A DNA stretch of 63,661 bases, the filler included, from Bacteroidales bacterium (GTDB taxonomy: Bacteria > Bacteroidota > Bacteroidia > Bacteroidales > CAIWKO01): NCBI GenBank assembly GCA_035389045.1. It is 3 parts of 3 records of this genome, joined end to end, with 100 filler letters (N's around TTAATTAATTAA, not from the genome) between each part and the next. Parts side by side here need not be neighbours in the genome. Positions count along the whole stretch, not along the records: positions 1 to 26,346 come from DAOORA010000064.1; 2 more parts are not named here. One strand, 5' to 3'. Position numbers and translations under genes: made by a program. The notes beneath the pieces are model-generated. The model was given only the letters and a program-made list of their open reading frames with translations. It was not told where the DNA came from and did no database searches. Numbering within the stretch: the stretch's first letter is position 1; every line of letters starts with the position of its first letter. This document shows, piece after piece, positions 4,839 to 22,634 of this stretch.

Positions 4839-5285
4839 TTATTGATCTGACTCCAAATTCATTTTGGTTTTAATATCCGGCCTTTCATCCTTCATGTGCT
4901 CGTACACCCACTTTTTATTTAATACATATCCTAATAATCCATTGGGTATGGCAATTATAGCAGAGGCCACATAAGCATTGACATGGATCAATGAGAATGC
5001 CCAGATAAAAAACATGCCCACACAATACGTGATGAAATATACTAATAAAAACCTGAATATTAATTTGTTGCTCCTGTTATTAAAAACAAGTATGCCATAG
5101 GTTTTAAAATTAAACAAAATTCCCAGTGTAGTCGAAATAGCACCCGCTATGGTATAATGCAGCCCGATCCACAAAAAGAAAGCCAGAATGCCGTAGCCGA
5201 ATATTGTATTCAACCCGGCAACCAGGAAAAACCTTATGATTTTAACACTTACAATGTTTTTAATAATTCTTTTTGTTTTTTCCAT
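4839..5285 (-). CDS. gtrA: GtrA-family polyprenyl-phosphate-sugar flippase
   Basis: Small 4-TM protein with IIRFFLVAGLNTIFGY...NF...LVF...RFLLVY...GYVLNKKWVY pattern. Confidence 0.85.
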   Translation of the reverse strand: MEKTKRIIKNIVSVKIIRFFLVAGLNTIFGYGILAFFLWIGLHYTIAGAISTTLGILFNFKTYGILVFNNRSNKLIFRFLLVYFITYCVGMFFIWAFSLIHVNAYVASAIIAIPNGLLGYVLNKKWVYEHMKDERPDIKTKMNLESDQ

Positions 5286-5396: not shown

Positions 5397-6332
5397 TTAT
5401 TCAAAATTGATCCGCTCTTTTTCGATGACCAACGGACGTTTCTTTACCTGTGTATAGATTGCACCGATATATTCGCCTATGATGCCGATAAAAAAAAGCT
5501 GCACTGAGGAAAAGAAAAACAAACCGATCACCAGGGGTGCCGTCCCGAGCTTAAATTCATTCCAGTAAATAAGTTTGTAGATCAAATAACCGATGGCAAC
5601 CAACAGACTGAAGATGGCAACGGTAAAACCGATGAAACTGGCCAGCCGCAGCGGCAGCTTTGAATGATTTACAAAGCCGAGCATACCGATATCATAAAGC
5701 GTATAGAAATTATTTTTGGTTTTTCCATGCAGTCGTTTCGGCTGGACATATTCTAACGAAGAGGTCTGAAATCCCACTTCGGATATCAGCCCTCTGAAAT
5801 AAGGATAAGGATCATCAATCCGGCGTATCACTTCGATAAATGAGCGGTCGTAAAGCCCGAAGCCCGTGAAATTCTTTATTTGTTCTCCTTCTGAAAATTT
5901 TTCAAGCATATTATAATACACTTTCCGCATCAGGAACATGACCGGGTTTTCCCTGGACTTTTTCTTTACGGCAGTGACGATTTTATACCCCTTCTCCCAT
6001 TTTTCCACAAAGGCAGGGATAACCTCCGGAGGGTCCTGCAGGTCGGCAGCCATAACGATCACACAGTCGCCGGTAACCTGGAGCAAACCATAGTAAGGCG
6101 AACGGATATGTCCGAAATTACGGACATTGACAATGATCCTGACATGTTTGTCCCGGGCAGCAATCCCTTTAAGTATCTCAACGGTTTTATCCTGAGAGTT
6201 GTTGTCGATGAAAACATGCTCGTAATCGTATCCCGGTAATCCGTCGAAAACCTTTTTTACCTCGTTGCACAGGATCTCAACATTTTCTTCTTCGTTGAAA
6301 CAGGGCGTCAGTACAGAAATCTTTTTGTTCAT
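5397..6332 (-). CDS. gtrB: GtrB/DPM-synthase-like GT2 polyprenyl-phosphate glycosyltransferase
   Basis: ISVLTPCFNEEEN, IDNNSQDKT, RNFGH, MAADLQDPP, two C-terminal TM helices, IGEYIGAIYTQVKKRP. Confidence 0.9.
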   Translation of the reverse strand: MNKKISVLTPCFNEEENVEILCNEVKKVFDGLPGYDYEHVFIDNNSQDKTVEILKGIAARDKHVRIIVNVRNFGHIRSPYYGLLQVTGDCVIVMAADLQDPPEVIPAFVEKWEKGYKIVTAVKKKSRENPVMFLMRKVYYNMLEKFSEGEQIKNFTGFGLYDRSFIEVIRRIDDPYPYFRGLISEVGFQTSSLEYVQPKRLHGKTKNNFYTLYDIGMLGFVNHSKLPLRLASFIGFTVAIFSLLVAIGYLIYKLIYWNEFKLGTAPLVIGLFFFSSVQLFFIGIIGEYIGAIYTQVKKRPLVIEKERINFE

Positions 6333-6339
6333 ATGGCAA

Positions 6340-7437
6340 TCACTTGTTTTTCTTGAGTTTTATGTTCTTATCAATCAGGTCTTCTTCCGTAAATACCTCA
6401 TTACAGGGTACAGGCAACTTTTTTCCATAAATTTTTTTGACCACATACTTGTCGATAAAATGCCTGTCCTCTGCAATAACGCAGGTATCTGAAAAGTTGC
6501 CGAAATATTTGATGTTCATTCCCCTTTGAATAATATCCTTTAGCGGTTCCTCAAACAAATTCCCGATAGAGGTATGAATATAGGGGCATGGCAGCACATC
6601 GCCGTATTGGGTGATGGAGATCATTCTTTTTACGGCAATACATCCTAAATTCAATCCATAGGACGGAGTGAGGTGTGTAAAAACGTTATATTTTTTTTCG
6701 AGTTCCCTCATATAATCCATATCATCGCGTGTAACCAGCGAATCGAAATTGCCTTCCCATGCGCCCACGGGTTTGGCGTAGGTAACAAACACCCCTACAT
6801 TTTTGTTGTTCAAAAACTCCAAAAACTCAATAAACTCCTGCGACCTGACTCTTTGTTTGGTAACAACGGTCTGAACGATCAGGCTCAACCCAGCATGAAA
6901 GGCTGCGTCGATGGCTTTCAACGCCCGGCTGTGCGACCCCCTGGCATTTCTGAAATCATCATGCTCTCCGGCTGATAAACTATCCAGGCTGAGCTGTATT
7001 TTGTCAACCCCGATCTTTTTTAAATGCAAGGCTTTTTTTTCGTCGAGAAACCATCCGTTGGTATCTGAAGTGATATAAAATTTCTGAGGATCAACAGCAG
7101 CGACCAGTTCGTCAAAATCTTTAAACACCAGTGGCTCCCCTCCGGTGATCACCAGGTGTGCCAGGCCCAGTTCGTCGGCCTGCCGCGACAAATCTTTCAC
7201 ATCGTCTATGGTAAACTTCCTGCCGCCTTTTTTTCCCTGAAAACCTTTGATGGAACAATGCTGACATACAAAATTACATGTATAATTGTACTGAAACTGA
7301 AGTATGGCAATGCTTTCGCCTCTTTTCACCTTATCGTCGTACTTCATAATTTTTTCATAGACGTAAGGCTTATTGAATTTTAGCTGATTTCTTTTTTCTT
7401 TTTCGCCGGCTTTCAGCGGATCATTTGTCAGTGACAT
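6340..7437 (-). CDS. Radical SAM protein with SPASM/twitch domain
   Basis: CNFVCQHC (CxxxCxxC), ITGGEPL, TNG, C-terminal GCIAVKRMISITQYGDVLPCPY...IGNL; start taken at MSLTND. Confidence 0.88.
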   Translation of the reverse strand: MSLTNDPLKAGEKEKRNQLKFNKPYVYEKIMKYDDKVKRGESIAILQFQYNYTCNFVCQHCSIKGFQGKKGGRKFTIDDVKDLSRQADELGLAHLVITGGEPLVFKDFDELVAAVDPQKFYITSDTNGWFLDEKKALHLKKIGVDKIQLSLDSLSAGEHDDFRNARGSHSRALKAIDAAFHAGLSLIVQTVVTKQRVRSQEFIEFLEFLNNKNVGVFVTYAKPVGAWEGNFDSLVTRDDMDYMRELEKKYNVFTHLTPSYGLNLGCIAVKRMISITQYGDVLPCPYIHTSIGNLFEEPLKDIIQRGMNIKYFGNFSDTCVIAEDRHFIDKYVVKKIYGKKLPVPCNEVFTEEDLIDKNIKLKKNK

Positions 7438-7447
7438 ATATGTATGT

Positions 7448-8584
7448 TTAGTTAATTTTTTCCAGGCCATAATCCCTCAGAATGGCGATGGCTATTTCTT
7501 TGCTGTATTTGTTCATCAAAAAACCCGCAATTTCATCCGAATAGGCAGCAGCCATTATAATTACGGCGTCCACCTTGTTTGCACGAAGCATCTCCGGTGC
7601 CACAATGGGGATATGCGAAGCGGGTGTATATTTGTTTTGTTTAAAAGGAGCCGAATCCACCACATATTTGATTTTTCCTGATAATCCGGCCAGGGATATC
7701 ACGGTAAGCGCCTGGTGCCCGGCCCCCCAAATGGCAACATCCTGATGGCGGCCGATAAATTCGAACAGTTCGTCTTTAAGTTTTGATTGGAATCCGGAAA
7801 AATCCGACATATCAACGGGGCGTCGTTTTCTGACCACGGCAGAGAGGATATAATCATGCCATACAGCCTTACATTCCAGTACCTGAAACCCATTAACGGC
7901 CAATAATGAAGACAGTGTTTCTGCTGTAAAATAAAACAGGTGGTCGCTGATGAATTCTGAGAACAGGTTTTTCCTGAGTATCATGTCGAAATTGGGCACC
8001 TCTATCAGCCCGACCGCATCATCGGTCAGGTTATGAGCAATTCCCCTCAGCGCCGTGTTAATATCCGGCATATGCTCAAGGAAACTCAAAATAAAAAAAG
8101 CATTAAAGGGTGCGTCTTGTAAAATAAACTTCTCAGCATCAATATAACCCTGCTGAACCTTCAGCCCTGATTCCTTACAGAGATTGACAGAAACCGGTGA
8201 ATATTCAATCCCGTAGGCCTGCGCAATAAATTTTTTCATCAGCGACAAGTACTCACCGCGCCCGCAACCGATTTCGATAATTTTCTTATTTTCAAGAGAA
8301 TACCGGTGGGCAAACTGCTCAAACTGGTGTAAACGGAATTGTTTCATTTCCTCCGAAAATGCTGCAGCGCGTATCACTTCCCGGTAATATGGCACCGGGT
8401 CGTTGCTGAGCTGGACAATGCCGCAGCCCGAGCACTGGCAGACTTCCAGGTCGATTCCTTTGTCGTTGCCCAGCGATGCAGCATCAGGAAAATTCTGGGC
8501 TGATTTAGGCATGTTCTCATACCTGAATAAAGGTGTTTCAAAAAACTCATGATGACAAACACGGCAATGATTAATGCGTTTCAC
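7448..8584 (-). CDS. NDP-sugar C-methyltransferase-like protein (Zn-binding N-terminus, SAM domain, C-methyltransferase C-terminal domain)
   Basis: CRVC...CSGCGIVQL, IEIGCGRG, LEHMPD, IEVPN, DHLFYF, WGAGHQ, VVDSAPFKQNKYTPASHIPIV. Confidence 0.82.
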   Translation of the reverse strand: MKRINHCRVCHHEFFETPLFRYENMPKSAQNFPDAASLGNDKGIDLEVCQCSGCGIVQLSNDPVPYYREVIRAAAFSEEMKQFRLHQFEQFAHRYSLENKKIIEIGCGRGEYLSLMKKFIAQAYGIEYSPVSVNLCKESGLKVQQGYIDAEKFILQDAPFNAFFILSFLEHMPDINTALRGIAHNLTDDAVGLIEVPNFDMILRKNLFSEFISDHLFYFTAETLSSLLAVNGFQVLECKAVWHDYILSAVVRKRRPVDMSDFSGFQSKLKDELFEFIGRHQDVAIWGAGHQALTVISLAGLSGKIKYVVDSAPFKQNKYTPASHIPIVAPEMLRANKVDAVIIMAAAYSDEIAGFLMNKYSKEIAIAILRDYGLEKIN

Positions 8585-8609: not shown

Positions 8610-10259
8610 TTATGAATTTAATGTAATATTAAAATAATCGAAATGTTTTTTCCAGAAATCATTTTTAGCTACTATTTCTTTTGCTGTTTTCATAAAATGT
8701 TCCGCCCGTTCAGGATCATCTAATTTCTCATAACATTTGGAGGTCATGTAATAGGCTAATGCGTGATTATTCTTTGCTCTTATTGCATTTTCAAAACCCT
8801 TTAAAGCAGTTTTATAATTACCCAAACGAAAATCACTATTTAAAACAAAATTCAATTCTAAATTAAGCAAATACGCTTTTTCCTGTATATATTCCGATGA
8901 AAAATCTTCGGTTTCCACTACGGCAAGCTTGTAATCGGACCGGTTAAAATTTGATTTTAAGTATTTCTTTTTTACACAAATATCGTACATTTCACTTCCA
9001 ACAAGCGGGTTGGCGCAAAAAATCAAATACCAGTTCGAGTCAATGGTTTTCAGAAAACTTCGGGTGACCTCAATATCTTCTTTTGTTTCCCCCGGAAGCC
9101 CAATAAGAATATTGGTGTTTGTGTATATTCCTAAATCCCTGCAATTATTGACAACATCCCGGACAATGTTTAAATTCAAAGGCTTATGCATGATTTCTTT
9201 TAAAACTCTTTCATTGCCCGATTCAACTGATAATAAAAGCTGATCGATCCCGGCATCTTTAAGCGTTTTAAGCATTTCCCTGTCCAAAGCATACAGTGCC
9301 AGGCCATTTTGAAAAACGACATTTATTTTTAATTCTTTTACAATTTCAATAATTTGATAAACCCTTTTTTTATCAGCCATTAAATGGTCATCCTGAAAAA
9401 CAAGAACTTTTGCATTATATTTTTCTTTTAGTTTAGTAAAATCTTCTTTAATCCGGTCAATACTAAAATATCTCATCTCCCGGCCATGTACGGTATAGGA
9501 AGAGCAAAAACAACATTTAAATGTACAGCCCCTCGATGTCATAACGTGGACATTATGGCTTTTTTGGCTGACGCCGGCATAAGCTGTAATTGCAGGGTTA
9601 AGACCATAGCTGTCCATGTCGCACAGATCATAATCATAAAAAGGAATCTCATCCAAATCAGTAATATAGCTGGGTGAAAATTGACAATTATTTTCAATTT
9701 TGTTTTTAGTTATCCAGGAAGAATGATTTTCCAACAACTCTTTTTTATGGTCTGCTTTGAGTAATTCTAAAAAAGGCAATTCTCCTTCTCCAAAACAAAG
9801 GGCATCGATGTCTGTTGTTTTGTCAAAAATCTGCCTGTACAAATTCGTCGGAATTCCACCTCCTGCCACGATAAGAGACTTTGGAAATATTTTTCTGCAA
9901 CTTGCAATGACATCAAACATCACCTCATAGGAAGGTGTAAATAAAACAGATATGCCAATTACAGACGGATTGTAATCGATATTTTCTTTTTGATTTAATT
10001 TTGAATAGACATAATCATAAAAAGAATTATACTCAAAACAACTTATGGTGTTGAGGTCAATATTAAAATCAATAAGCCTTGTTTCAACTTTGCAGTGTTT
10101 TTTAATAAAGGAGCTAATAGATAAGATTCCTATTGGCATATCGCTTAAGACACTGCCAAAATCCCTGCCTTCCCTTTTGATAACTCTGACATTATGGGGC
10201 GGATTAATGAAATCTTCAAAGGTTATGTGAGGGGGATCGATAAAAAGAACTTTTTCCAT
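8610..10259 (-). CDS. Cobalamin-binding (class B) radical SAM enzyme with C-terminal TPR-like helices
   Basis: PIGILSISS, VIGISV, VAGGGIPT, GEGE, TSRGCTFKCCFC, VESGNERVL, IGLPGETKED; more AT-rich than neighbours. Confidence 0.9.
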   Translation of the reverse strand: MEKVLFIDPPHITFEDFINPPHNVRVIKREGRDFGSVLSDMPIGILSISSFIKKHCKVETRLIDFNIDLNTISCFEYNSFYDYVYSKLNQKENIDYNPSVIGISVLFTPSYEVMFDVIASCRKIFPKSLIVAGGGIPTNLYRQIFDKTTDIDALCFGEGELPFLELLKADHKKELLENHSSWITKNKIENNCQFSPSYITDLDEIPFYDYDLCDMDSYGLNPAITAYAGVSQKSHNVHVMTSRGCTFKCCFCSSYTVHGREMRYFSIDRIKEDFTKLKEKYNAKVLVFQDDHLMADKKRVYQIIEIVKELKINVVFQNGLALYALDREMLKTLKDAGIDQLLLSVESGNERVLKEIMHKPLNLNIVRDVVNNCRDLGIYTNTNILIGLPGETKEDIEVTRSFLKTIDSNWYLIFCANPLVGSEMYDICVKKKYLKSNFNRSDYKLAVVETEDFSSEYIQEKAYLLNLELNFVLNSDFRLGNYKTALKGFENAIRAKNNHALAYYMTSKCYEKLDDPERAEHFMKTAKEIVAKNDFWKKHFDYFNITLNS

Positions 10260-10267
10260 TAACAAAT

Positions 10268-10765
10268 TTAAAAATAATTTCGATACATATCTTGCATCGG
10301 GATGAGATTTTCAGGACATTTTTCGTGCCATGCAAGAAAGCCGGCATCGTTAACGCTCAATCCCGTTGAGTTCAATACAAATTGTTCCGACAAAAAACAT
10401 TTAAATAACAAGGAAATAAAGTGGCCTCTTGTTCTACTTTCTGCTATAATAGTCTGACAAATAGCAACCGGACCGGGTTCAAATTCTACCGGTGTTCCTA
10501 TTTCGACTTTGGCAACCTCAATAATTCTGTTTTCAATAGTTTCCTTAAACCGGATAATACCGCCGGGGACATGCCAGCCGGTGCCGCAGTATGTGTCGTC
10601 TCTCCAGGATAGCAGTGTCCGGTTTCTTTCGTCTTTTATAAGCAGGTCAACATTAATCATCGGGGTAATCCCGCTGACAAACAAAAAAACATCTTCCGGC
10701 AAGCCATCACAGGGGTTGGAAATACCGTCATATATCACTTTTAAAGCATCGCTGATTTTCATCAT
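10268..10765 (-). CDS. NUDIX hydrolase, GDP-mannose mannosyl hydrolase (Gmm/WcaH)-like
   Basis: TPMINVDLLI...WHVPGGIIRFKETIENRI...EIG, HFISL. Confidence 0.75.
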   Translation of the reverse strand: MMKISDALKVIYDGISNPCDGLPEDVFLFVSGITPMINVDLLIKDERNRTLLSWRDDTYCGTGWHVPGGIIRFKETIENRIIEVAKVEIGTPVEFEPGPVAICQTIIAESRTRGHFISLLFKCFLSEQFVLNSTGLSVNDAGFLAWHEKCPENLIPMQDMYRNYF

Positions 10766-10766
10766 C

Positions 10767-11660
10767 TTAAAATGGTTGTTCCATAAAACCAATATCCTTA
10801 TCGATGATATGTTTGTTTAACACATACCATTCGTATAACATTTTTAAACCCACATCAAGGGGTGTAAATTCAAAGCTTTTCATTTCTTTCAGCAACAGCG
10901 TATTGTCACCGCTGTATTCTGTTCCAAGTCCATCTTTCTGAAAGGTAACGCTTAATTTTTTCCCGGATAGTTCCACAATTTTTCCGGCAATGGTTTTATA
11001 ATCAGTCACATTGCCCGAACAGACGTTATAAACTTTTTGCGACGGGGTATGTTCGGCAAACCATTCCACAATTTTCACCAGGTCGCCGGCGAACAAGAAA
11101 TCCGCAAATTTATTCTGACCGATGCGGACAGGCATGTTCATGACTACCTGACAACAGACATTCGGTATCAACCGGGTTTTCCAGTCATCATCGTGTCCGT
11201 ATACGCCAAAAAGCCTCAGGTTGTATATGTTGTTGTTCAGCAGGGTAAATTTTGTCATCAGGTATTTTGAAAAGCCGTACTGGTCGGCCGGGACAAAAGT
11301 ATCAAAGTAATTTTCCTTCATTCCGGGGATCCAGTTTTCGCGCCCGAATTCTGCCCCGCTGCCAAAATAGATCATCTTGCCGAAAAAACCACTGCATCTT
11401 GCAACATTGAAAAACATTTTCAGGTTGTTTTCCAGCACCATCATTGGATTTTTCACAGAATGGCGGGGGGCTGCATCGTAAGTGGCTGTGTGTATAACAA
11501 CATCAAAGCGGTGTTTTTTAATAAAATCCTCAACTTGTGATATGACCAGTAAGTCCAGTTCCTGCCGTGCGGGCGCCAGAACCTCGTATTTGCCCTGAAA
11601 CTCCCCGGCCAGATTTCGGGCAATAAAACCATTTCCACCGGTGATCAATAGTTTCATCAT
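10767..11660 (-). CDS. NAD-dependent epimerase/reductase (extended SDR), YerF-like position
   Basis: LLITGGNGFIA, GSGAEFG, YGFSK, LRLFGVYG; ATGA overlap with the upstream ThDP enzyme. Confidence 0.85.
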   Translation of the reverse strand: MMKLLITGGNGFIARNLAGEFQGKYEVLAPARQELDLLVISQVEDFIKKHRFDVVIHTATYDAAPRHSVKNPMMVLENNLKMFFNVARCSGFFGKMIYFGSGAEFGRENWIPGMKENYFDTFVPADQYGFSKYLMTKFTLLNNNIYNLRLFGVYGHDDDWKTRLIPNVCCQVVMNMPVRIGQNKFADFLFAGDLVKIVEWFAEHTPSQKVYNVCSGNVTDYKTIAGKIVELSGKKLSVTFQKDGLGTEYSGDNTLLLKEMKSFEFTPLDVGLKMLYEWYVLNKHIIDKDIGFMEQPF

Positions 11661-13465
11661 TTGTCTTCCAGTGGTTTTATGATCATATTCTGCCTGAATT
11701 CGTCCCTGTCGAGAAAAGGCCAAAGGTCTTCCAGCGGCCTCGAGATCATCCGTCCGTCTTCCGTTTTATAGCTCATCATCCGCGGCGCTGTAACCTGGTC
11801 GGGGTTGATCAGAAGCTCACACAATACCGGCCCGTTGTAATCCAGTATCTGCCGGATGTTTTCTTTTAATTCGGGGTTATTGGCGATCCGGAATGTTCTG
11901 ATCCCGTGTGCGTCGGCCACCCTGCAGAAATCCGGCAGTGTAAGGCCGCTGCCGGTGCTGCTGCCGGCGAATCGTCCTTCGAAGTAAGCTTTTTGTGTAA
12001 TGCGTATCGAGCCGTATCCTTTATTGTTCAACACAAATATTTTAACCGGAAGTTCAAGCCGTTTCAGGGTTTCCAGCTCCTGAATATTCATCACGAACCC
12101 GCCGTCGCCGTCAATGCATACGGTTCGTTTTTTTTCGCTTGCCAGGCAGCCGCCGATTGCGGCCGGTAAGCCAAATCCCATAGGCCCCAGCCCTTCGCTG
12201 TTGAACAGACGCATCCCTTTTTTGATCCTGAAAGCCTGCATAGTCCTTTCGCTGCATGCGCCCGAGCTGCCGGGAATAATAACATCATCAGCGGTCAGTT
12301 CATCCGACAGCAGATCAATGAGGTAATAATCATTTACAAAATCCTTTTGTTCTTTATATTCAGGCAATACCACGGGATACCGGGCTTTCCATTCCTTACA
12401 TCTGCCGATCCAATAGTTCCTGTCCTTATTTTCGACCAGTGCGATATTCTTTTGAAGTTCTTCGATAAATAATCCGGCATCTGCACAAACGGGCACATCA
12501 ATAAGAGTCATCATTTTATTGATTTCGTGCATATCGGCATCGACCATTATTTTTCGGGCTTCGCGGGCAAAATTCTTATGATTGTATCCTGTCTGGCCAA
12601 AATCGAGCCGCGCCCCGATGATCATAATGGAGTCAGCGTTTTGTTGTACGAAATTGGCGCCTCGTTGTCCGACACTGCCCGGGCGGCCAAAATACCACTC
12701 ATCATTTTCATCAAAAAAATCTATCGTTTTCCAGGTGGTAAGCACGGGTACCTGAAGTTTTTTTACAAGATCGAGAAACAGATGCTCTGCTTTTGCCAGC
12801 CTTATCCCGTTGCCCGCCAAAATCACCGGCCGTTCAGCATTATTAAGCAGTTCAATGGTTCTGGCCACTTGTTCTTTCAGGAGAACGATGTCAACTTTTT
12901 CTATCTGCTCCTCTTCAGAATAGCATTTTAATTTCGTTTCTTCGATACGTGCATCCTGGACATCTAAGGGGATATCAAGCCACGCCGGGCCCGGTCTGCC
13001 GCTTCTTGCCAGGTAAAGCGCCTTTTGCAGGTGGTATTTTACAGACTCAGGATCTGTAATGGTAACAGCATATTTTGTTATGGGCTTCACCATATCAACA
13101 ATGTTGATTTCCTGGAAACCCATCTGCCTCACCTTTCTGTTGCCGATCAGGTCATCCCTCTTCACCTGGCCCGAAAGGATAAGAACCGGTATCGAATCGA
13201 GCCATGCAGAAGCCACCCCGGTGATGGCATTGGTGGCTCCCGGCCCTGTGGTAACAAGCGCCACGCCAATATCATTGGTATACTGTGCGTATGCTTCAGC
13301 GGCGACGGCACAGGCCTGTTCATGCAGGTTTACCGTATATTCAATGGCAGGATGCTTACCCAGTGAATCTACCAGATGCATACATCCTCCGCCGGGAAGC
13401 ATGAACACGTGATTTACACCCGCACCTGCCAGATAGTCGAAAACAAAATCAGATAATTTTTGCAT
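11657..13465 (-). CDS. ThDP-dependent acetolactate-synthase-like carboligase (YerE-like, branched-chain sugar)
   Basis: HEQACAVAAEAYA, VTTGPGATNAITGV, RSGRPGPAWLDIPLDVQ, GDGG...NNKGYGSIR ThDP motif; lies inside a CDP-dideoxyhexose cluster. Confidence 0.85.
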   Translation of the reverse strand: MQKLSDFVFDYLAGAGVNHVFMLPGGGCMHLVDSLGKHPAIEYTVNLHEQACAVAAEAYAQYTNDIGVALVTTGPGATNAITGVASAWLDSIPVLILSGQVKRDDLIGNRKVRQMGFQEINIVDMVKPITKYAVTITDPESVKYHLQKALYLARSGRPGPAWLDIPLDVQDARIEETKLKCYSEEEQIEKVDIVLLKEQVARTIELLNNAERPVILAGNGIRLAKAEHLFLDLVKKLQVPVLTTWKTIDFFDENDEWYFGRPGSVGQRGANFVQQNADSIMIIGARLDFGQTGYNHKNFAREARKIMVDADMHEINKMMTLIDVPVCADAGLFIEELQKNIALVENKDRNYWIGRCKEWKARYPVVLPEYKEQKDFVNDYYLIDLLSDELTADDVIIPGSSGACSERTMQAFRIKKGMRLFNSEGLGPMGFGLPAAIGGCLASEKKRTVCIDGDGGFVMNIQELETLKRLELPVKIFVLNNKGYGSIRITQKAYFEGRFAGSSTGSGLTLPDFCRVADAHGIRTFRIANNPELKENIRQILDYNGPVLCELLINPDQVTAPRMMSYKTEDGRMISRPLEDLWPFLDRDEFRQNMIIKPLEDK

Positions 13466-13466
13466 T

Positions 13467-14042
13467 TTAAACTATAATTTTCTTGAGAAAATCAACTACG
13501 CTTTCCGATGAATTGCTGTTCCACGGTTGAGGGAACAATAATGTCCTTATTCCGTCTTTTTTTGCATCATTGATATGGCTCTCATTATCGTCGATGAAAA
13601 TATCCACATTGCCGAGTGTGCGTAAAAATCCGGCTTTATTAGCATCATAGCATGGAAAATCATCATGGGTGCGTTTTGACGGAACAAAGTGATAGGTCCT
13701 GATCCAGTCACCAAAGTGTTTAAAAACCCATTGTGCTGAACAGGGTGCATAAAAACGCGGTGTGGCCGTTAATACCGCATGACGGAACTGATGGCCATGC
13801 GCCCTGAACCATTCCAGGACATCCATATCCGGCTGAAGCGACTCCCCGTGCTTTATCCTGAACTCATCAAGCGTTTCGAGATATTTTTCGCGGGAAATGT
13901 GAAAGATCTCATGAGGTGGTATCTTATCAATCTGAGCAAACAGCACCATACAAGCGGGGTTGTTCTTCAGCCAGTAACCTTCAAACCAGTCGCGGGTCAG
14001 GTTATTCAACACATCATCAACATCCCAGATTATTGTCTGCAT
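13467..14042 (-). CDS. HAD-superfamily phosphatase, 5'(3')-deoxyribonucleotidase-like
   Basis: IIWDVDDVL motif I, LTAT motif II, NK, IFIDDN motif IV, LLFPQPWN. Confidence 0.8.
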   Translation of the reverse strand: MQTIIWDVDDVLNNLTRDWFEGYWLKNNPACMVLFAQIDKIPPHEIFHISREKYLETLDEFRIKHGESLQPDMDVLEWFRAHGHQFRHAVLTATPRFYAPCSAQWVFKHFGDWIRTYHFVPSKRTHDDFPCYDANKAGFLRTLGNVDIFIDDNESHINDAKKDGIRTLLFPQPWNSNSSESVVDFLKKIIV

Positions 14043-14047
14043 TTTTA

Positions 14048-15565
14048 TTATATGATTGATTTCAGCCACAGGGTGATCTCTGTCTTCCGGTTTTTGTTGC
14101 GGGTAATGGTTTCATCGGTATAATACGAATCGTCTTTATAATGCGTTGAAGAAATTTCTTCGATGATAACACCTGTCTGTGTAAACATTTTATGCTTTAC
14201 TCCCCGCTCAATCACAATGATATCGCCGCTTTTTAACGACCTGGCCACTCCGTCGAGCGTCAGTTCAAGGGTCCCGTACATGATGTGGAAGGTTTCTTCT
14301 TTTTGCTTATGGTATTGCTCAGGATGTGTCTGCCCGGGTAAAAGGATAATGAGTTTTTTGCAGTATTCACGGTTGATAAAATTAATAATGGTGGTACCTG
14401 CCTCATAATACTTGTCTATCCCGTAATGATGCGAGATTTCAAAATCCACTTTATCGGGGACGGAAACCCTGCTTTCAATTATATACTTGCTGACATCTGT
14501 GGTAATAGCGAGCACTTTTTCTCTAAGCTCCATTTTTTTGGTATCTGTAAACAGTATCGCTTCATTTTTCCTGATGTCTTTCAGCAGCCGGAATTCGGTG
14601 TATTTTGAAAAATCATTGGCCGTTATTTGCCCTTCACCGACCGGAATGGCAAAAAACACATCTTCCGTTTCAATTTTTTCTCCATTTTTCAGGTCGTGGC
14701 GTGCAAAAACTCCCCGTCTCAATCCACGGAGGTCGTCCGTTTCTTTTTGCGAAAAGGTATGCCTTTCATCATGATCGCCGCAATACTCAAAAGCTTCTCC
14801 GGCAGCTTTCAGCCATTTGTAAACCTGTTCGGGTTTTGCCGAATAGGCATTCAGCTTATATTGCTCGGTTTCAAGGCCGACATGTTTTTCAAATATCCGC
14901 GCCCCTTTTGCCACCGCTAACTTAATGGAAGTCAGTTCGTCCGGACCTTCATGCGTAGAATATCCAATAGTATGACCGGGGTACCTTTTTCTGAACAGGT
15001 CAATTTGATTCAGGTTAGAATTTTTCGCCGGGGTTGGATATTCTGCAATACAGTGCATCAATGCGAGACTTTTATCCCGGTGTTCAAAAAAGCTGACCAC
15101 CCGGTCGATATTGAATAATTCGACTCCCGCTGTGGATGCAATCAACGGCAGGCGTGTTTTGGAAATTCTTTCGAGCAAAGGCCAGTCGGTGAATGAGCAG
15201 CTTGCTATTTTCAAAAAATCATAACCATGTTCTTCGACCAGGTCCACAGAGGCTTCGTCGAAAGGGGTGCATACCGCCAGGAATCCTTTTTCTTTGATGT
15301 GATCTTTGATTTTCCTGAAATCGTCGGGATTAAGACGTGTTTCCGCAAAACGTTTAATGTATTTTATATCTTTCCGTGTTTGAAAATCCGGATGTATAAA
15401 TGTATCCAGCTGCCTGTACTGCAACTTGAATGCAAAATCAAAACTGAACTCATTAATTATTGCCGCAATTTCATCAATAATTTTACATCCATGTCCGGCA
15501 TCGCCCATGTGATTATTGGCAAGTTCAAATACAAACAATGGTTTATCGCCTGTTTTCATGTTCAT
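14048..15565 (-). CDS. NeuB/SpsE-family PEP-dependent synthase with SAF domain fused to a D-lyxose-isomerase-like cupin
   Basis: ELANNHMGD, KLQ, TPFD, KIAS, LMHCIAEYPT, GYSTHE, FEKHV; SAF LRRGVFARHDLKNGE; cupin NREYCKKLIILLPGQTHPEQYHKQKEETF. Confidence 0.85.
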   Translation of the reverse strand: MNMKTGDKPLFVFELANNHMGDAGHGCKIIDEIAAIINEFSFDFAFKLQYRQLDTFIHPDFQTRKDIKYIKRFAETRLNPDDFRKIKDHIKEKGFLAVCTPFDEASVDLVEEHGYDFLKIASCSFTDWPLLERISKTRLPLIASTAGVELFNIDRVVSFFEHRDKSLALMHCIAEYPTPAKNSNLNQIDLFRKRYPGHTIGYSTHEGPDELTSIKLAVAKGARIFEKHVGLETEQYKLNAYSAKPEQVYKWLKAAGEAFEYCGDHDERHTFSQKETDDLRGLRRGVFARHDLKNGEKIETEDVFFAIPVGEGQITANDFSKYTEFRLLKDIRKNEAILFTDTKKMELREKVLAITTDVSKYIIESRVSVPDKVDFEISHHYGIDKYYEAGTTIINFINREYCKKLIILLPGQTHPEQYHKQKEETFHIMYGTLELTLDGVARSLKSGDIIVIERGVKHKMFTQTGVIIEEISSTHYKDDSYYTDETITRNKNRKTEITLWLKSII

Positions 15566-15620
15566 CAAATTTGTTGTTTCGAAAATTCAATCTGCTGGTT
15601 TAGATTAACGATATCTTTTT

Positions 15621-15655: not shown

Positions 15656-16969
15656 TTACAGTCCATTGACAAAGTCATCCAGGATGCCTTCGGCATAATC
15701 AAACATTTCTCTTGACAAACCGGGATATGTCCCCAAAAAGAACGTATTGTTCATAATGGTTTCCGTATTCAGCAGGTGATCGGCAACACGCCATGATTTA
15801 TCAGCAAAAGCGGGCTGTTTTATGATGTTTCCTGCAAAAAGGTTGCGGGTTTCGATTAATTTCTCATTCAGCAATGTGGTTAAGGTGTCACGCGTGAAAG
15901 GGGCTTTATCCTTTATTGTCACAATAAAGGCAAACCACGCAGGATCAGCCCCCTCAGTGGCTTCGGGCAAAATAAAGTAATCAGGATATTTTGCAAAGAT
16001 ACGGGTCCACTCCCGGAAATTCTTTTTACGTTTTTCGCAGAAATCAGGGAGTTTGTCTATTTGTGCGGCCCCTATAGCGGCCTGTATGTCGGTCATTTTT
16101 AAATTATAACCGATCTCCGAATACACGTATTTATGGTCGTATCCCGAAGGCAGTTGCCCGAACTGTCGTGAAAAACGGCTACCACAGGTGTTGTTATCGC
16201 CCCCGGCACAGTAACAGTCGCGTCCCCAATCGCGGAAAGCGCGAATTATCTTTGCCAATTGCGGATCGTTAGTGCATACGGCTCCTCCTTCGCCGGTGGT
16301 GATGTGGTGTGCCGGATAAAAAGAAAGCGTTGAAATATGCCCGAAAGTTCCGGTGAATCCGGATTTGTATTTACTGCCAAAGGCATCGCAGTTGTCTTCA
16401 ATAACCCATAAATTATGCTTATGGGCTAGTCCCATAACAGCATCGACATTAAACGGATTCCCGAGGGTATGGGCAATGAAAATGCATCGGGTACGTGGAG
16501 TGATGGCTCTGCGCATCATGTCAGCGTCAATGTTATACCCGGGAATTTCCACATCAACGAATACCGGTACTAGTCCATTTTGAATGATGGGGGTCACTGT
16601 AGACGGGAAACCTGCTGCAACGGTGATCACCTCGTCACCGGGGATCATCTTACGGTTGCCCAGTTTCCTGGACATAAGAGCGGATAAAGCCAGCAGGTTG
16701 GCTGAAGAACCCGAATTGACGAGTAAGATGTGTTTTATTTTTAAAAACTCCGAAATTTTAGCGGTAAATTGTTCTGAAAAACGGCCCTCGGTGAGCCAGA
16801 AATCAAGCGAGGCCTCCACAGCATTGATGAGTTCGCATTCATCAAAAACCCGGCCGGCATAGTTTATCAGGGTTTTTCCCGGGATAAATTCTTTCTGTTC
16901 AAAATACGCACGATAATATTCCGCTGTTTTTTCCAGAATTTCTTTCCGTAGTTGTTTATGATCAGACAT
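15656..16969 (-). CDS. rfbH: CDP-4-keto-6-deoxy-D-glucose 3-dehydratase (E1, RfbH/DdhC)
   Basis: DFWLTEGRF, NSGSSANL, AAGFPSTV, AHTLGNPF, EDNCDA, SFYPAHHITTGEGG (His in place of the PLP Lys), RDWGRDCYC...NTC Fe-S Cys, YDHKY. Confidence 0.93.
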   Translation of the reverse strand: MSDHKQLRKEILEKTAEYYRAYFEQKEFIPGKTLINYAGRVFDECELINAVEASLDFWLTEGRFSEQFTAKISEFLKIKHILLVNSGSSANLLALSALMSRKLGNRKMIPGDEVITVAAGFPSTVTPIIQNGLVPVFVDVEIPGYNIDADMMRRAITPRTRCIFIAHTLGNPFNVDAVMGLAHKHNLWVIEDNCDAFGSKYKSGFTGTFGHISTLSFYPAHHITTGEGGAVCTNDPQLAKIIRAFRDWGRDCYCAGGDNNTCGSRFSRQFGQLPSGYDHKYVYSEIGYNLKMTDIQAAIGAAQIDKLPDFCEKRKKNFREWTRIFAKYPDYFILPEATEGADPAWFAFIVTIKDKAPFTRDTLTTLLNEKLIETRNLFAGNIIKQPAFADKSWRVADHLLNTETIMNNTFFLGTYPGLSREMFDYAEGILDDFVNGL

Positions 16970-16998
16970 AACAATATTTTTAAGCATGATGGGACATT

Positions 16999-18087
16999 TT
17001 ACAACAGATGGTTGTAATATTCCGAAATCTGGGCTTCAGTAACTTTTTGTATGTTTTGACCTGAAAGATAAGCTTTGTTCCAATCGACAATGTTCCGAAG
17101 TGCTGTTTCTATATCCCACTGCGGTTGCCATCCCAATTCGTTTTTTGCCTTGGAGCAGTCTAATTTCAGGTATGTGGCCTCATGCGGCCCGGTATTTTTA
17201 TCCATCCGGAATGAAGCGTCTTTGCCCCAATAGCTGCACAATGCAGTAATGATCCATTCCACACTTCTTGCATCCTTGTCTTCCGGGCCGAAATTCCAGG
17301 CTTCCGCATATTTAACACCATCAGCATATAGTTTTTCAGCCAGTTTCAGGTACCCCGACAAAGGTTCAAGGACGTGCTGCCATGGTCGTATGGCGGCGGG
17401 ATTGCGTACCGTGAGTTTTTTTCCTTTGGAAACGGCTTTAACAAAGTCAGGGATCAGGCGGTCTTCGGCCCAGTCGCCCCCGCCGATAACATTGCCAGCC
17501 CGTGCCGATGCAACAGCCACACCATGCTTACTGTACTCTTCCGCATTAAAAAAAGAACTCCTGAACGCCGACGTGACCAGTTCCGAACAGGCTTTGCTGT
17601 TGGAATAGGGATCGTAGCCCCCCATGGGTTCGTATTCCCTGTATCCCCAGAGCCATTCATGGTTTTCGTAACATTTATCGGTGGTGACATTGATCACGGC
17701 TTTTATACCGGGAACATGCCGCACGGCTTCCAGCACATTCACCGTCCCCATCACATTGGTGGAATAGGTTTGCACCGGGTCGTGATATGACCTGAGCACC
17801 AGCGCCTGGGCAGCCATATGGATGATGATTTCGGGCTTTACCTTTTTGATCGTTGCCAGCACTTTTTCATAATCCCTGATATCACCGATATATGAGGTGA
17901 TACATTCATGGATCCGGGCATCCGCAAATAAGCTCGGGTTTGTAGGCGGTTCAAGGGCATAACCATACACATCGGCGCCCAGTCTTTTGAGCAGCAGGCA
18001 GAGCCATGAACCTTTAAACCCGGTGTGTCCGGTAATTAAAACCTTTTTGCCGACCCAGAAATTTTCAGTTTGTATTTTTTTTACCAT
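16999..18087 (-). CDS. rfbG: CDP-glucose 4,6-dehydratase
   Basis: LITGHTGFKGSWL, HMAAQALV, TTDKCYEN, DPYSNSK, RAGNVIGGGDW, RPWQHVLEPL. Confidence 0.96.
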   Translation of the reverse strand: MVKKIQTENFWVGKKVLITGHTGFKGSWLCLLLKRLGADVYGYALEPPTNPSLFADARIHECITSYIGDIRDYEKVLATIKKVKPEIIIHMAAQALVLRSYHDPVQTYSTNVMGTVNVLEAVRHVPGIKAVINVTTDKCYENHEWLWGYREYEPMGGYDPYSNSKACSELVTSAFRSSFFNAEEYSKHGVAVASARAGNVIGGGDWAEDRLIPDFVKAVSKGKKLTVRNPAAIRPWQHVLEPLSGYLKLAEKLYADGVKYAEAWNFGPEDKDARSVEWIITALCSYWGKDASFRMDKNTGPHEATYLKLDCSKAKNELGWQPQWDIETALRNIVDWNKAYLSGQNIQKVTEAQISEYYNHLL

Positions 18088-18857
18088 AATTTCCACTCAC
18101 ATTTGTCTGACGACCATATTTTTTCTAAATCTTCTTTATCACGGATGGTATCCATAGGCCTCCAGAAGCCATAATGCTTGTACGCATACAATTGAGCCTC
18201 TCTGGCCAGAGCCTCCAGCGGTTCTCTTTCCCAGATCGTGGAATCGTCCCTGATGTAGTCAAAAACTTCGGGCTGAAGAACAAAAAATCCGGCATTGATC
18301 CATGCATTATCCCCTTTGGGCTTTTCCTGAAATGCAAAGATCTCCACAGAATTTTCATCATTGAAATGAATGGCTCCAAACCGTCCGGTGGGCTGCGTGA
18401 CAGTGACGGTGGCCAGTTTTTTTTGCGAATGATGAAAATCAACCAGTTCTTTGATATTCACATTACCCACCCCATCACCGTATGTCAGCATAAATGGTTC
18501 ACTGCCGATATATTCCTGCACTCTTTTTATTCTGCCCCCGGTCATGGTATCCATTCCGGTATCAATCAGGGTGATCTTCCAGGGTTCCGCATTTGACTGG
18601 TGAATATCAATTTTGTTTTTTTGCAGGTCAATAGTAACATCGGCCTGATGCAGGAAATAGTTGGCAAAATATTCCTTAATCAAGAATCCTTTATACCCAC
18701 AGCAGACGATAAATTCATTGTAGCCATAATGAGAATATATTTTCATTATGTGCCAGAGTATGGGTTTTCCGCCTATTTCGACCATGGGTTTAGGTTTCAG
18801 GCCCGTTTCTTCGCTTAATCGGGTTCCCAGCCCTCCTGCTAAAATAATTACTTTCAT
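18081..18857 (-). CDS. rfbF: Glucose-1-phosphate cytidylyltransferase
   Basis: ILAGGLGTRLSEET..KPKPMVEIGGKPILWHIMK, TMTGGRIKR, LTYGDG, INAGFF, GFWRPMDT. Confidence 0.96.
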   Translation of the reverse strand: MKVIILAGGLGTRLSEETGLKPKPMVEIGGKPILWHIMKIYSHYGYNEFIVCCGYKGFLIKEYFANYFLHQADVTIDLQKNKIDIHQSNAEPWKITLIDTGMDTMTGGRIKRVQEYIGSEPFMLTYGDGVGNVNIKELVDFHHSQKKLATVTVTQPTGRFGAIHFNDENSVEIFAFQEKPKGDNAWINAGFFVLQPEVFDYIRDDSTIWEREPLEALAREAQLYAYKHYGFWRPMDTIRDKEDLEKIWSSDKCEWKLW

Positions 18858-19045: not shown

Positions 19046-20653
19046 TTATTTGTTTGCAGAATTGTTTGTTATTTTCCAGACGGAAATAATACGGCTGTTA
19101 TAGGCCTTTATATTAAAAACTTCTTTGACATTGAAATTGCCCTGGAAGGTATAATCTTCTGGATGAACGCGGTAATTACTGACAAAATAATCAGGATTAT
19201 CGGTTCCTTTTTGTAAAAAAGTTATTCGTTCTCTGTCTTCAGGCCGGAGAATGTCAAGCGTGAAAAGGCCGGGAGGTATATTATAATAGACGACTACATG
19301 TTTGCGGTCATCGGTTTTTAATATGTACTCATATGCTTCTTTAAATGAAGTTCCCCAATAATCCAGTTCATAGTTTTTCCGAAGGCCTTCGCGCTTATTC
19401 TTTAACTTATAAACGACATCATTGAAATAAATCCCTTCGTAAGGGTGCAATCTGATCATCTGAGAAGCAATGAAACAAAATGTCACTCCGAGTGCTGCAA
19501 TTAAAACTTTTCCGAGCTTTCCCCTGATCCTTTGCCAGAGTTCATGTACCCCGTATGCCGCAATCAATACCAGGCCTCCGTAAACAAAAAAGACCTGCCG
19601 CCAATCATCGTATACCACTGATTTCATTATAACTATGATGGCTAAAGGCGAAATGAAGCATAAGAAAAAGAAAAAGGGGATCATAAAGTTTTTATCATTA
19701 AGCACACGCCATCCGTTGCGGAATATCTTAATCACCAGAAATACCACACCGGCTAAAGTCAGAAGCCAATACACAAGAGGTATGGTGATGATCATCCACC
19801 AGAGAATATGATACCAGGGCAGTTCATTGGATATATAAAATTTCCCCATAAACAGCACTGATCCGCGCCACCAGAAACTGGACATGGTAGAAAAGGAAGA
19901 TGCAAGTTTTCCGAACGGATCGTGCCACAAGATCGGCCATGTAATATATAAAACTAGAAAAGTGGTCGTCAGCAATAATAAAAACTGGATGGCTGTTTTT
20001 TTTGGCGACTCTTTTTTTATGTTAAACAGAAAGTCAATTATCCTGAAAATGGTGAAAAAAAACGGTAACATCAGCCCCATGATGCGAATATTAATCGTCA
20101 GGGCATATATTGCCCCAAGAATAATATAATCTTTATATTTATTGGAATACAGGGTTTTAATGGAAAAATAAATCGAAATAACCACCATGGAAAGAAAGGG
20201 CATATCCTTGGGGTTAAAAAAGGAATGGGCATATATACGCGGATTGAGCAAATAGATCAGTAAGGCGATGATGCCCAACCATTCGTTTTTCCAAACCTTT
20301 ACAACCAGCTTATACAGGAAAAAACCGGATAAAAGAAATAATAAATGATTGATCAGATGCCTGGATATCATAACATCACGGATATCGCTTATTATGCCGG
20401 TTTTTTCAAAGCCTATGCAGAGCCATTCAAAAAACACTCCGTAGCCACTCATACCCTTTGTATAAATGGATAGGTCGTGATGAAAAACGTAATCAAAATT
20501 CAACAGGCCATATTCCCGGTGAATTTTTTCGTCCCAACCCAAGCCGTAATCATTGCATACGATGATTCCAACAACCAGGAAAATAAAAAGCAGCACATAT
20601 ACGGCATTCTCTTTTACCTTAGGATTAATCGAAAATGGCTTTTGTTTTCGCAT
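19046..20653 (-). CDS. GT-C fold multi-TM glycosyltransferase (ArnT/PMT-like, polyprenyl-phosphate-sugar donor)
   Basis: DYGLGWDE first-loop motif, many TM segments, HSFFNPKD, YDDWRQ, periplasmic tail with YELDYWG. Confidence 0.78.
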   Translation of the reverse strand: MRKQKPFSINPKVKENAVYVLLFIFLVVGIIVCNDYGLGWDEKIHREYGLLNFDYVFHHDLSIYTKGMSGYGVFFEWLCIGFEKTGIISDIRDVMISRHLINHLLFLLSGFFLYKLVVKVWKNEWLGIIALLIYLLNPRIYAHSFFNPKDMPFLSMVVISIYFSIKTLYSNKYKDYIILGAIYALTINIRIMGLMLPFFFTIFRIIDFLFNIKKESPKKTAIQFLLLLTTTFLVLYITWPILWHDPFGKLASSFSTMSSFWWRGSVLFMGKFYISNELPWYHILWWMIITIPLVYWLLTLAGVVFLVIKIFRNGWRVLNDKNFMIPFFFFLCFISPLAIIVIMKSVVYDDWRQVFFVYGGLVLIAAYGVHELWQRIRGKLGKVLIAALGVTFCFIASQMIRLHPYEGIYFNDVVYKLKNKREGLRKNYELDYWGTSFKEAYEYILKTDDRKHVVVYYNIPPGLFTLDILRPEDRERITFLQKGTDNPDYFVSNYRVHPEDYTFQGNFNVKEVFNIKAYNSRIISVWKITNNSANK

Positions 20654-22217: not shown

Positions 22218-22634
22218 TTATTGGTTGATAGCGTTTTTTTGCTCAGTGAATTTTGTACATGCGATCGACAGGTTATAAGTCTGTCTGCTAATTATGTCAT
22301 ATGAAGAAATTAATTCATTACAAATAGCTAAATCTACGAATTGTGGATATAAACCCCTCGTCTGACACAAAGAAACTATTGTTTCGTTAGATTCCGCCAG
22401 GGCATCATCTAAATATTTTTGAAATCCCTTCTTCTGATGTCTTTTGGAATGTCCTTCTGCAATTAATCGAGGTATCGCTTTTGATGATCGCTGAAACTGG
22501 TCCCTCAAATCAAATTTTTCTTCAGGTGGAAGTTTTGGAAGGATATCTTTAAAAACTTTCAGCATAGCAGTATAAGAATTTTGGTAAACATCCAGATCAT
22601 GAAAACTTCGTATTTTTTTCTTTACCTCTTCCAT
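22218..22634 (-). CDS. Four-helix-bundle protein (23S rRNA IVS protein/S23-like family)
   Basis: SFHDLDVYQ, LPPEEKFDLRDQ..RSS..IPRLIAEG, ALAESNET. Confidence 0.88.
   Translation of the reverse strand: MEEVKKKIRSFHDLDVYQNSYTAMLKVFKDILPKLPPEEKFDLRDQFQRSSKAIPRLIAEGHSKRHQKKGFQKYLDDALAESNETIVSLCQTRGLYPQFVDLAICNELISSYDIISRQTYNLSIACTKFTEQKNAINQ

Follow-up and report, generated by a model that had tools for sequence, protein, structure and literature searches.

The window analyzed here is a stretch of 63,661 nucleotides from the genome of a Bacteroidales bacterium (GenBank assembly GCA_035389045.1; 96.3% complete, 135 contigs). It holds three pieces, with paired 44-base N runs in the separators at positions 26347-26446 and 52684-52783, and the locus described below lies only on the contig at window positions 1-26346 (DAOORA010000064.1). 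There, fourteen genes on the minus strand, running from position 20653 down to 4839 and mostly joined by overlaps or gaps of a few bases, form an array whose GC content ranges from 0.37 to 0.48. The gene of main interest (14048..15568, with an ATG at 15565) encodes a 506-amino-acid fusion of a NeuB-type synthase, an SAF domain, and a cupin, with matches to PF03102, Cupin_2, and PDB entries 3g8r and 2y0o. It is preceded by genes for RfbF, a glucose-1-phosphate cytidylyltransferase (18081..18857; TIGR02623 equivalog, 427.9 bits, cut-off 300), RfbG, a CDP-glucose 4,6-dehydratase (16999..18096; TIGR02622 equivalog, 514 bits, cut-off 278), and RfbH (E1), a CDP-6-deoxy-4-keto-glucose 3-dehydrase (15656..16987; NF011936 equivalog, 673.8 bits, cut-off 423). 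It is followed by genes for a 200-amino-acid HAD-superfamily phosphatase with a C1 cap, assigned by motifs and predicted fold (13467..14069, likely ATG at 14042), a 602-amino-acid YerE-like thiamine diphosphate (ThDP)-dependent carboligase with TPP_enzyme N, M, and C domains (11657..13465), and an extended short-chain dehydrogenase/reductase (SDR) of the RmlD/epimerase-like type (10767..11660, ATG at 11660; PF01370, E 5.4e-27). The fusion stop lies 5 nucleotides from the likely HAD ATG, the HAD stop lies 1 nucleotide from the ThDP start, and the ThDP stop and SDR start overlap by 4 nucleotides, read from the sequence as ATGA. A sequence-only reading of the window had described a NeuB-like synthase fused to a cupin, a HAD gene, a ThDP gene, and an ATGA-coupled SDR gene, and the gene models at these coordinates, on the minus strand, bear out each of them.

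A Pfam search with the fusion returned NeuB (PF03102, E 6.3e-40), Cupin_2 (E 5.2e-11), and, weakly, Lyx_isomer. The SAF domain was a weak match (E 0.017), but the alignment to the Neisseria meningitidis NeuB (NmeNeuB) nonetheless extends through residue 342. PDB entry 3g8r aligned to residues 8-342 with an E value of 1.1e-116, compared with about 1e-19 for true sialic acid synthases, and the scores on the NeuB and PseI equivalog models (TIGR03569, 136 bits against a cut-off of 399.65; TIGR03586, 119.6 bits against 340.25) were below threshold. In bacterial NeuB, E25, E134, and E234 are catalytic and the substrate-binding SAF-domain arginine R314 is essential (N. meningitidis numbering; PMC8208679). 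A phmmer alignment to 4ipi/4ipj showed that E25 and E234 are kept in the fusion, as E15 and E227, and that E134 and R314 are replaced, by S125 and I308, respectively; S125 was invariant among 18 aligned sequences. H206 and H229, which we take to be the metal-site histidine pair of NeuB, are also kept. Since the phosphoenolpyruvate (PEP) and metal residues are retained and the equivalents of E134 and R314 are changed, the PEP/metal chemistry of the fusion looks intact, and its sugar pocket looks unlike that of a sialic acid synthase.

With the synthases of sialic acid and of ketodeoxynonulosonic acid (KDN), represented by NmeNeuB (1xuz), the fusion shares the NeuB TIM barrel and SAF domain, the metal histidine pair, and two of the three catalytic glutamates. 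It differs from them in scoring far under the NeuB and PseI cut-offs, in carrying a cupin, in lacking a cytidylyltransferase partner, in being tied to a ThDP enzyme, and in its motif, IGYSTHE in the translation, where those enzymes have GxSDH. GYSTHE and a second motif, SCSFTDW, are common to the fusion and 3g8r, a 350-amino-acid protein, presumably from Chromobacterium violaceum, that has no fused cupin and whose entry title ("probable spore coat polysaccharide biosynthesis protein E") assigns no function.

The cupin domain comprises the C-terminal 160 residues, and its best sequence match among solved structures was the Bacillus subtilis D-lyxose isomerase 2y0o (E 3.8e-8). When its AlphaFold2 model (predicted local distance difference test [pLDDT], 93) was searched with Foldseek, 2y0o again ranked first (template modeling [TM] score, 0.71/0.69; root mean square deviation, 2.2 Å). 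Ranks 2 to 10 were other D-lyxose isomerases, superposed over the whole domain at 2.0 to 2.2 Å, and archaeal cupin-type phosphomannose isomerases came next, matching over the barrel core only. No RmlC- or FdtA-type nucleoside diphosphate (NDP)-sugar cupin was described among the 47 matches listed (ranks to 50). The score on PF07385, Lyx_isomer, was 15.0 bits against a cut-off of 20.8. H420, E425, and H459 are invariant; the first histidine of the HxH motif is Q418 in the window protein and is a histidine in about half of the 36 aligned sequences. The D-lyxose/D-mannose isomerases (YdaE, 2y0o; Thermofilum, 7nzo-7nzq; Escherichia coli Z5688, 3kmh) have the whole-domain fold and the motifs PGQ.HP..H, K.EETF, and E.SSTH..DS.Y in common with the cupin; unlike them, it is the C-terminal domain of a synthase, and its substrate may be phosphorylated. 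The sequence match to 2y0o and the D-lyxose isomerase fold support the isomerase role that the earlier proposal gave to the cupin.

The HAD protein gave no Pfam match at an E value of ≤0.001 (HAD model, E 0.051; 14.4 bits against a threshold of 27), and its family profile found only weak matches among PDB sequences (best E, 0.099). Of the motif residues, D16, D18, K145, and D161 do not vary among 34 sequences and T101 is conserved in at least 90% of them, and the AlphaFold2 model (pLDDT, 95.7) has the Rossmannoid, capped fold of HAD phosphatases. Foldseek returned 218 PDB matches at E ≤0.001; the 47 listed were all members of the HAD superfamily, the best TM score being that of the deoxyribonucleotidase-like 3bwv. 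The earlier assignment of this protein as a HAD phosphatase is thus supported by all four motifs and by the predicted fold.

The ThDP enzyme scored below every acetolactate synthase cut-off (TIGR00118, 413 bits against 538). Its closest solved relative was JanthE (8rph; E 6.5e-126, 424 bits), compared with an E value of 1.7e-85 and 291 bits for the best acetolactate synthase. With its three TPP domains, its nearness to YerE-like lyases, and rfbF, rfbG, and rfbH upstream, it has the features of a YerE-like enzyme, and its assignment as a YerE-like carboligase is supported; as such, it would add a 2-keto acid onto CDP-4-keto-3,6-dideoxyglucose. JanthE, from Janthinobacterium sp. HH01, is itself YerE-like and takes longer or hydroxylated 2-keto acids and ketone acceptors; its physiological substrates are stated to be unknown (PMC12188165). 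The cofactor motif of JanthE is CDG, compared with GDG in the window enzyme. A ThDP enzyme encoded beside a fusion gene in Janthinobacterium lividum (L056:8408-10333) has SDG for the usual GDG, and this position is seemingly free to vary in YerE-like enzymes. That J. lividum gene was considered as a candidate for JanthE itself and rejected (E 7.1e-116). In the window genome, at 96.3% completeness, there was no second acetolactate synthase-like ThDP gene at E ≤1e-20, and the organism may lack ilvB.

The fusion belongs to a large family. At least 7950 database proteins match it, the best 120 of which, from bacteria and archaea, are 56 to 93% identical. Among species-representative genomes, a relative was encoded in at least 576 of 599 pattern-matching stretches, and the best 80 loci were analyzed. 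A ThDP homolog was present in 77 of the 80, in bacterial and archaeal phyla; the other three loci end 0, 7, and 312 bp past the fusion gene, so that these misses are due to contig ends. The two genes are adjacent in 32 loci and have only the HAD gene between them in 36 (together 68 of 77), with a gap of 1 to 1.7 kb in 5 loci and of 8.6 to 9.4 kb in 4. Because the arrangement is repeated in 77 of 80 related loci, it is far beyond chance. The HAD gene was found in 44 of the 80 loci, directly after the fusion gene in all but one of these (43/44), and the fetched flanks held RfbH (≥200 bits) in 53 loci and RfbF in 52. Unbiased clustering of neighboring open reading frames revealed no further family, beyond those counted here and below, in more than 18 of the 80 loci. 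In a separate sample of 401 genomes from the organism's own phylum, the fusion occurred in 6 and a close ThDP homolog (E ≤1e-110) in 11, with the two genes adjacent in 5 of the 6 fusion genomes. One fusion gene in this sample (G238:C35:8754-10241; locus L091) has an in-frame TGA and may represent a sequencing error or a broken copy.

The ThDP enzyme and the cytidylyltransferases that could activate a ulosonate (CTP_transf_3, iterated profile) differ sharply as neighbors, the latter occurring in only 4 of the 80 loci, 3 to 10 kb away. The comparison of these two partners had been put forward as a check by the sequence-only reading, and it comes out in favor of the ThDP link. That reading had also stated that no cytidine monophosphate (CMP)-ulosonate synthetase is present. 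This holds for the contig, where no CTP_transf_3 gene was found; the genome has a single such gene, for KdsB, on contig C6 (TIGR00466, 211 bits, cut-off 155). The only other weak match to the NeuB model in the genome is a 3-deoxy-D-arabino-heptulosonate 7-phosphate synthase-type gene adjoining kdsC. With no cytidylyltransferase on the contig and only KdsB elsewhere, there is no evident route to CMP activation of a fusion product.

The gene identities, folds, motifs, and conserved, co-varying neighborhood make it probable that the fusion and the HAD enzyme supply a ulosonate donor and that the ThDP enzyme grafts it as a C4 branch onto a CDP-3,6-dideoxyhexose. From the same evidence we infer the substrate-product links from the cupin to the SDR, the identity and length (C7 to C9) of the ulosonate, and the tailoring steps. 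RfbF, RfbG, and RfbH would provide CDP-4-keto-3,6-dideoxyglucose, by chemistry that is established for these families. The cupin would convert a ketose, probably in phosphorylated form, into a cis-2,3-configured (lyxo/manno-type) aldose, the NeuB-SAF part would condense the aldose with PEP to a 3-deoxy-2-ulosonic acid or its phosphate, and the HAD enzyme would strip the terminal phosphate. The ThDP enzyme would then decarboxylate the ulosonate and attach the acyl anion at the ketone on C4 of the CDP-sugar, after which the ATGA-coupled SDR would reduce the C1' ketone of the branch. With a 2-keto-3-deoxy acid as the donor, the branch would consequently be oxygenated at C1' and deoxy at C2'. A methyltransferase, two radical SAM enzymes, and a Nudix protein would tailor the product, and a family 2 glycosyltransferase (GT2), a GtrA protein, and a C-fold glycosyltransferase (GT-C) would carry the sugar via polyprenyl phosphate to a surface glycan. 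The order of the genes matches the order of these proposed reactions.

The published precedent for such a donor allowed the proposal to be examined from the side of the supplier. ErwE, MMAR_2332, and MyGE are ThDP enzymes that accept gamma-hydroxylated 2-keto acids of C4 to C8 as donors, and the donors used for erwiniose, caryophyllose, and gastriose are known or suggested to come from cluster-encoded aldolases (Steitz 2022, PMC9306805). Six genomes of the phylum sample have the ThDP gene without the fusion, and the clusters of five were analyzed. In all five, the ThDP gene has rfbF, rfbG, or rfbH as neighbors, four keep the GT2 gene, and four encode an HpcH/HpaI aldolase; no homolog of this aldolase was found in the window or in any of the 80 fusion loci. 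This pattern indicates that the fusion and HAD module takes the place of the known supplier. Two clusters from a single genus, one of the fusion type and one of the aldolase type, occupy the same chromosomal locus, with flanking genes 56 to 81% identical. RfbF (86%), RfbG (78%), RfbH (66%), and GT2 (69%) are well conserved between the two, but the ThDP enzymes are only 43% identical, the ThDP gene having been swapped together with the supplier and tailoring genes. Such joint exchange is what would be expected of an enzyme matched to its substrate. Both this module swap within a genus and the mutual exclusion between the fusion and the HpcH aldolase support the earlier suggestion that the ulosonate feeds the ThDP enzyme.

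The same clusters bear on the possibility that the ulosonate is instead the acceptor, receiving a pyruvate-derived acetyl group at its C2 ketone, or that the ThDP enzyme merely decarboxylates it to a 2-deoxy-aldose. Acetolactate synthases take 2-keto acids as acceptors, the window enzyme reaches 413 bits on the acetolactate synthase model TIGR00118 (cut-off 538), and adjacency of the genes fits either role. We nevertheless regard this as unlikely, given that the nearest relative of solved structure is JanthE, a YerE-like enzyme that accepts ketones, that in most loci the module comes after rfbF, rfbG, and rfbH, and that the product would be left with no activation route, there being no cytidylyltransferase. 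Moreover, the homologous aldolase-type clusters match the experimentally studied case of ErwE, which takes the product of the aldolase as its donor and does not accept pyruvate (PMC9306805).

Several features of the aldolase-type clusters were observed in passing. Three of the four that encode an aldolase (L085:10940-13471, L087, and L088; L086 in part) share a conserved trio, in which the HpcH/HpaI aldolase is joined by a short-chain reductase and by a "sugar phosphate phospholyase (cyclizing)" related to AroB (TIGR04425, 452 bits, above cut-off). The AroB-like enzyme beside the aldolase suggests that an unusual aldehyde precursor may be used for the branch. In all five clusters, a Lactamase_B_2 protein with the metallo-beta-lactamase fold is encoded between rfbG and rfbH (e.g., L085:5826-6593 and L087:8426-9172). 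Nine of the 80 fusion loci encode it as well, as do L090 and L091 (L091:11669-12421), whereas the window does not. No gene for an E3 reductase of the RfbI/AscD type is conserved in these cassettes.

The consumer of the fusion product can also differ. The sixth fusion genome of the phylum sample encodes a fusion that is 46% identical to the window protein and has the same three domains, a GYSGHE motif, and an intact HRH cupin motif. Its gene comes after that of a PseF/NeuA-like cytidylyltransferase in a cluster of the capsule type that lacks a ThDP gene. From metagenomes, 80 relatives of this sister fusion were collected, all of which score nearer to it than to the window protein. A cytidylyltransferase was present in 59 of the 80 fetched stretches; where more than 2.5 kb was available on both sides, the count was 34 of 36, compared with 2 of 36 for a ThDP gene. 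No homolog of the HAD protein or of RfbH occurred in any of the 80. Cytidylyltransferases of the CTP_transf_3 type activate free ulosonic acids, and the pairing of the sister subfamily with such enzymes therefore indicates that the fusion architecture makes a free ulosonic acid. This supports the earlier claim that the fusion, with the HAD enzyme, produces a free ulosonate. The sequence-only reading had named co-occurrence with CMP-transferases as evidence against itself; such co-occurrence is a feature of the 46%-identical sister subfamily only, the count in the window subfamily being 4 of 80. By this comparison of gene neighborhoods, the consumer in the window subfamily is changed from a cytidylyltransferase to a ThDP enzyme. 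In one sister locus, the cytidylyltransferase has a C-terminal extension of about 120 residues (L084:8230-8616) with sub-threshold HAD-like matches only (E 0.032-0.15), which may be a fused phosphatase but is given no weight here.

A free product is at odds with schemes in which NeuB acts on the CDP-sugar itself, either by adding PEP to the C4 ketone to give a pyruvyl-type C3 branch or by extending, with PEP, a hydroxyacetyl branch that the ThDP enzyme has added and the cupin has turned into an aldehyde. In such schemes the ThDP enzyme would act either ahead of NeuB or after it. Gene context does not fix the order of the steps, a -CO-CH2OH branch is a conceivable substrate for an aldose-ketose isomerase, and shewanellose is a natural sugar with a pyruvate-type branch at C4. 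However, the sister subfamily pairs with cytidylyltransferases (34/36) and has neither rfbH nor the HAD gene nearby, so the fusion architecture evidently works on free sugars; the match of the cupin to D-lyxose isomerases, which act on free sugars, extends along the entire domain, with no RmlC or FdtA type among the 47 matches listed; and free keto acids are the product of the aldolase module found in place of the fusion (PMC9306805). We consider these schemes improbable.

The cytidylyltransferase route of the sister subfamily could also be taken to mean that an ordinary KDN-like or other nonulosonic residue of the same glycan is the product of the fusion and the HAD enzyme and that the ThDP enzyme uses pyruvate to form a plain acetyl branch of the yersiniose type. 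A NeuB protein with a HAD phosphatase is the known KDN-9-phosphate route in Bacteroides. Bacteroides thetaiotaomicron reportedly has a KDN-9-phosphate synthase together with a KDN-9-phosphate phosphatase, and a HAD phosphatase follows the fusion as in routes with phosphorylated substrates. Several observations make this reading very unlikely in the window subfamily. A cytidylyltransferase is absent from the contig, represented only by KdsB in the genome, and present in 4 of the 80 loci; the ThDP linkage, at 77 of 77 informative loci, is tighter than expected of two independent sugars; the ThDP gene and the supplier are exchanged together within a genus; and the equivalents of R314 and E134 are replaced, in a protein that scores 136 bits against 399.65 on TIGR03569.

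Some results weigh against the proposal that the ulosonate is the donor for the C4 branch. In a midpoint-rooted tree of ThDP enzymes, the five aldolase-associated sequences, all from one phylum, nest inside the fusion-associated ones, which means that the ThDP sequence family alone is no marker of donor type. A reductase of the type encoded in the window (SDR318) was found in only 20 of the 80 loci, or 48 when a second SDR type is counted. RfbH lay within the flank in 53, so that the acceptor may differ among cassettes. The window cupin and about half of its relatives have glutamine for the first HxH histidine. The HAD gene is missing from 36 of the 80 loci, and no residue of the fusion separates the loci with it from those without it; a phosphorylated intermediate is therefore not assured. 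A residue switch in the fusion between phosphorylated and free substrates was considered, and there was no sign of one, since no residue tracks the presence of the HAD gene. In addition, C8-C9 ulosonates are mostly cyclic in solution, which could hinder attack by the ThDP enzyme, and gene context by itself cannot distinguish a donor from an acceptor.

With regard to the identity of the donor, D-lyxose isomerases and NeuB enzymes favor manno- and lyxo-configured sugars, which points to an aldose that may be mannose-6-phosphate, leading to KDN and a C8 branch, or lyxose-5-phosphate, leading to a C7 branch. We tentatively suggest, as a possibility that may well prove wrong, that the donor is a C8-C9 ulosonate, either KDN or an isomer of 3-deoxy-D-manno-octulosonic acid (Kdo), made from fructose-6-phosphate via mannose-6-phosphate or from xylulose-5-phosphate via lyxose-5-phosphate, and that the product is a branched monosaccharide of 13 or 14 carbons. 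If so, it would exceed in size every branched sugar in the papers compared, in which the largest branch is C7.

The remaining genes of the array, likewise on the minus strand, would serve tailoring and export. Downstream of the SDR gene are those for a Nudix-like protein that resembles GDP-mannose mannosyl hydrolase (10268..10792; NF011963, E 3.1e-8, below cut-off), a B12-binding radical SAM enzyme with a C-terminal tetratricopeptide repeat (8610..10265; PF04055 and PF02310), which may tailor the sugar by methylation or deoxygenation, an NDP-sugar C-methyltransferase-like protein with a C-terminal Methyltransf_14 domain (7448..8584; PF08484, E 1.8e-16), and a radical SAM/SPASM enzyme with a putative tailoring role (6340..7470; PF04055 and PF13186). 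The last two genes encode a GT2 polyprenyl-phosphate glycosyltransferase of the PgfS/ArnC-like type (5397..6332; NF047588, PgfS, E 4.6e-57, and ArnC-type NF007986, E 7.5e-38, both below cut-off) and a small membrane protein of the flippase-associated GtrA family (4839..5285; PF04138, E 5e-12). The first gene of the array encodes a PMT_2/ArnT-like GT-C membrane glycosyltransferase (19046..20653; PF13231, PMT_2, E 1.1e-8) that likely transfers the finished sugar from its polyprenyl-phosphate carrier to an acceptor. Across the 80 fusion loci, homologs of the C-methyltransferase were found in 46, the radical SAM/SPASM enzyme in 34, the polyprenyl-type GT2 in 30, the Nudix-like protein in 23, and the B12-binding radical SAM enzyme in 22. 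Just upstream of the array, between atpD and a class II aldolase gene, is a gene for a 23S rRNA intervening-sequence protein (22218-22634; PF05635, E 9.4e-17), a family that also occurs inside 3 of the 80 related sugar loci (e.g., L052:1131-1484). A CHU_C protein of the type IX secretion system, suggestive of Bacteroidota, is encoded near the array on the same contig.

In the pathways to erwiniose, caryophyllose, and gastriose, 2-keto-3-deoxy acids serve as donors for ThDP enzymes, a principle that is already published (Steitz 2022, PMC9306805). The "caryophyllose-like logic" invoked by the sequence-only reading is upheld as a general scheme, but caryophyllose itself is assigned to the aldolase MMAR_2331 and not to a NeuB protein (PMC9306805). 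The array has in common with the described acyl-branched sugar pathways, those for yersiniose (YerE/YerF), erwiniose (ErwE/F/I/J), caryophyllose (MMAR_2331/2332), and gastriose (MyGE/MygI/MygF) (PMC9306805), the genes for CDP-4-keto-3,6-dideoxyglucose, a YerE-like carboligase, and an adjoining reductase, and it shares with the long-branch pathways an apparently dedicated enzyme for a 2-keto-3-deoxy acid donor. Published suppliers belong to the pyruvate aldolases, of the BphI or HpcH/citrate lyase type; that of the array would be a PEP-dependent NeuB-SAF synthase with an isomerase and a phosphatase. The array also adds radical SAM, C-methyltransferase, and Nudix genes, with export by way of GT2, GtrA, and GT-C. 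No NeuB-type supply was found in the literature, where the supplement of Steitz 2022 or an in silico survey covering over 200 YerE-like clusters (reference 70 of PMC12247030) may list such neighbors; the main text of Steitz 2022 (PMC9306805) makes no mention of NeuB, sialic acid, or cupins, and neither does the available text of a 2025 review (PMC12247030). The NeuB-cupin-HAD supply is thus new relative to the literature searched, and with its principle known it is not categorically new.

The proposal would give a nonsialic role to a very large, conserved, and uncharacterized branch of NeuB proteins (at least 7950 matching database proteins), in which one ulosonate-making fusion is wired to either of two consumers, a cytidylyltransferase or a ThDP carboligase. 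To the published scheme for long branches it would add a supply that is driven by PEP and coupled to an isomerase, through which branches could become longer and carry more hydroxyl groups than those from the aldolase routes. If the donor is a C8-C9 ulosonate, a physiological donor class would also be identified for orphan YerE-like enzymes. New donor-enzyme pairs may be of use for making chiral tertiary alcohols biocatalytically, which the ThDP field names as an aim (PMC12247030). For the organisms themselves, undescribed surface sugars are predicted in many uncultured lineages; if the product is the sugar of 13 or 14 carbons, it would be displayed by hundreds of bacterial and archaeal species, most of them uncultured and with Patescibacteria and DPANN-type archaea among them.

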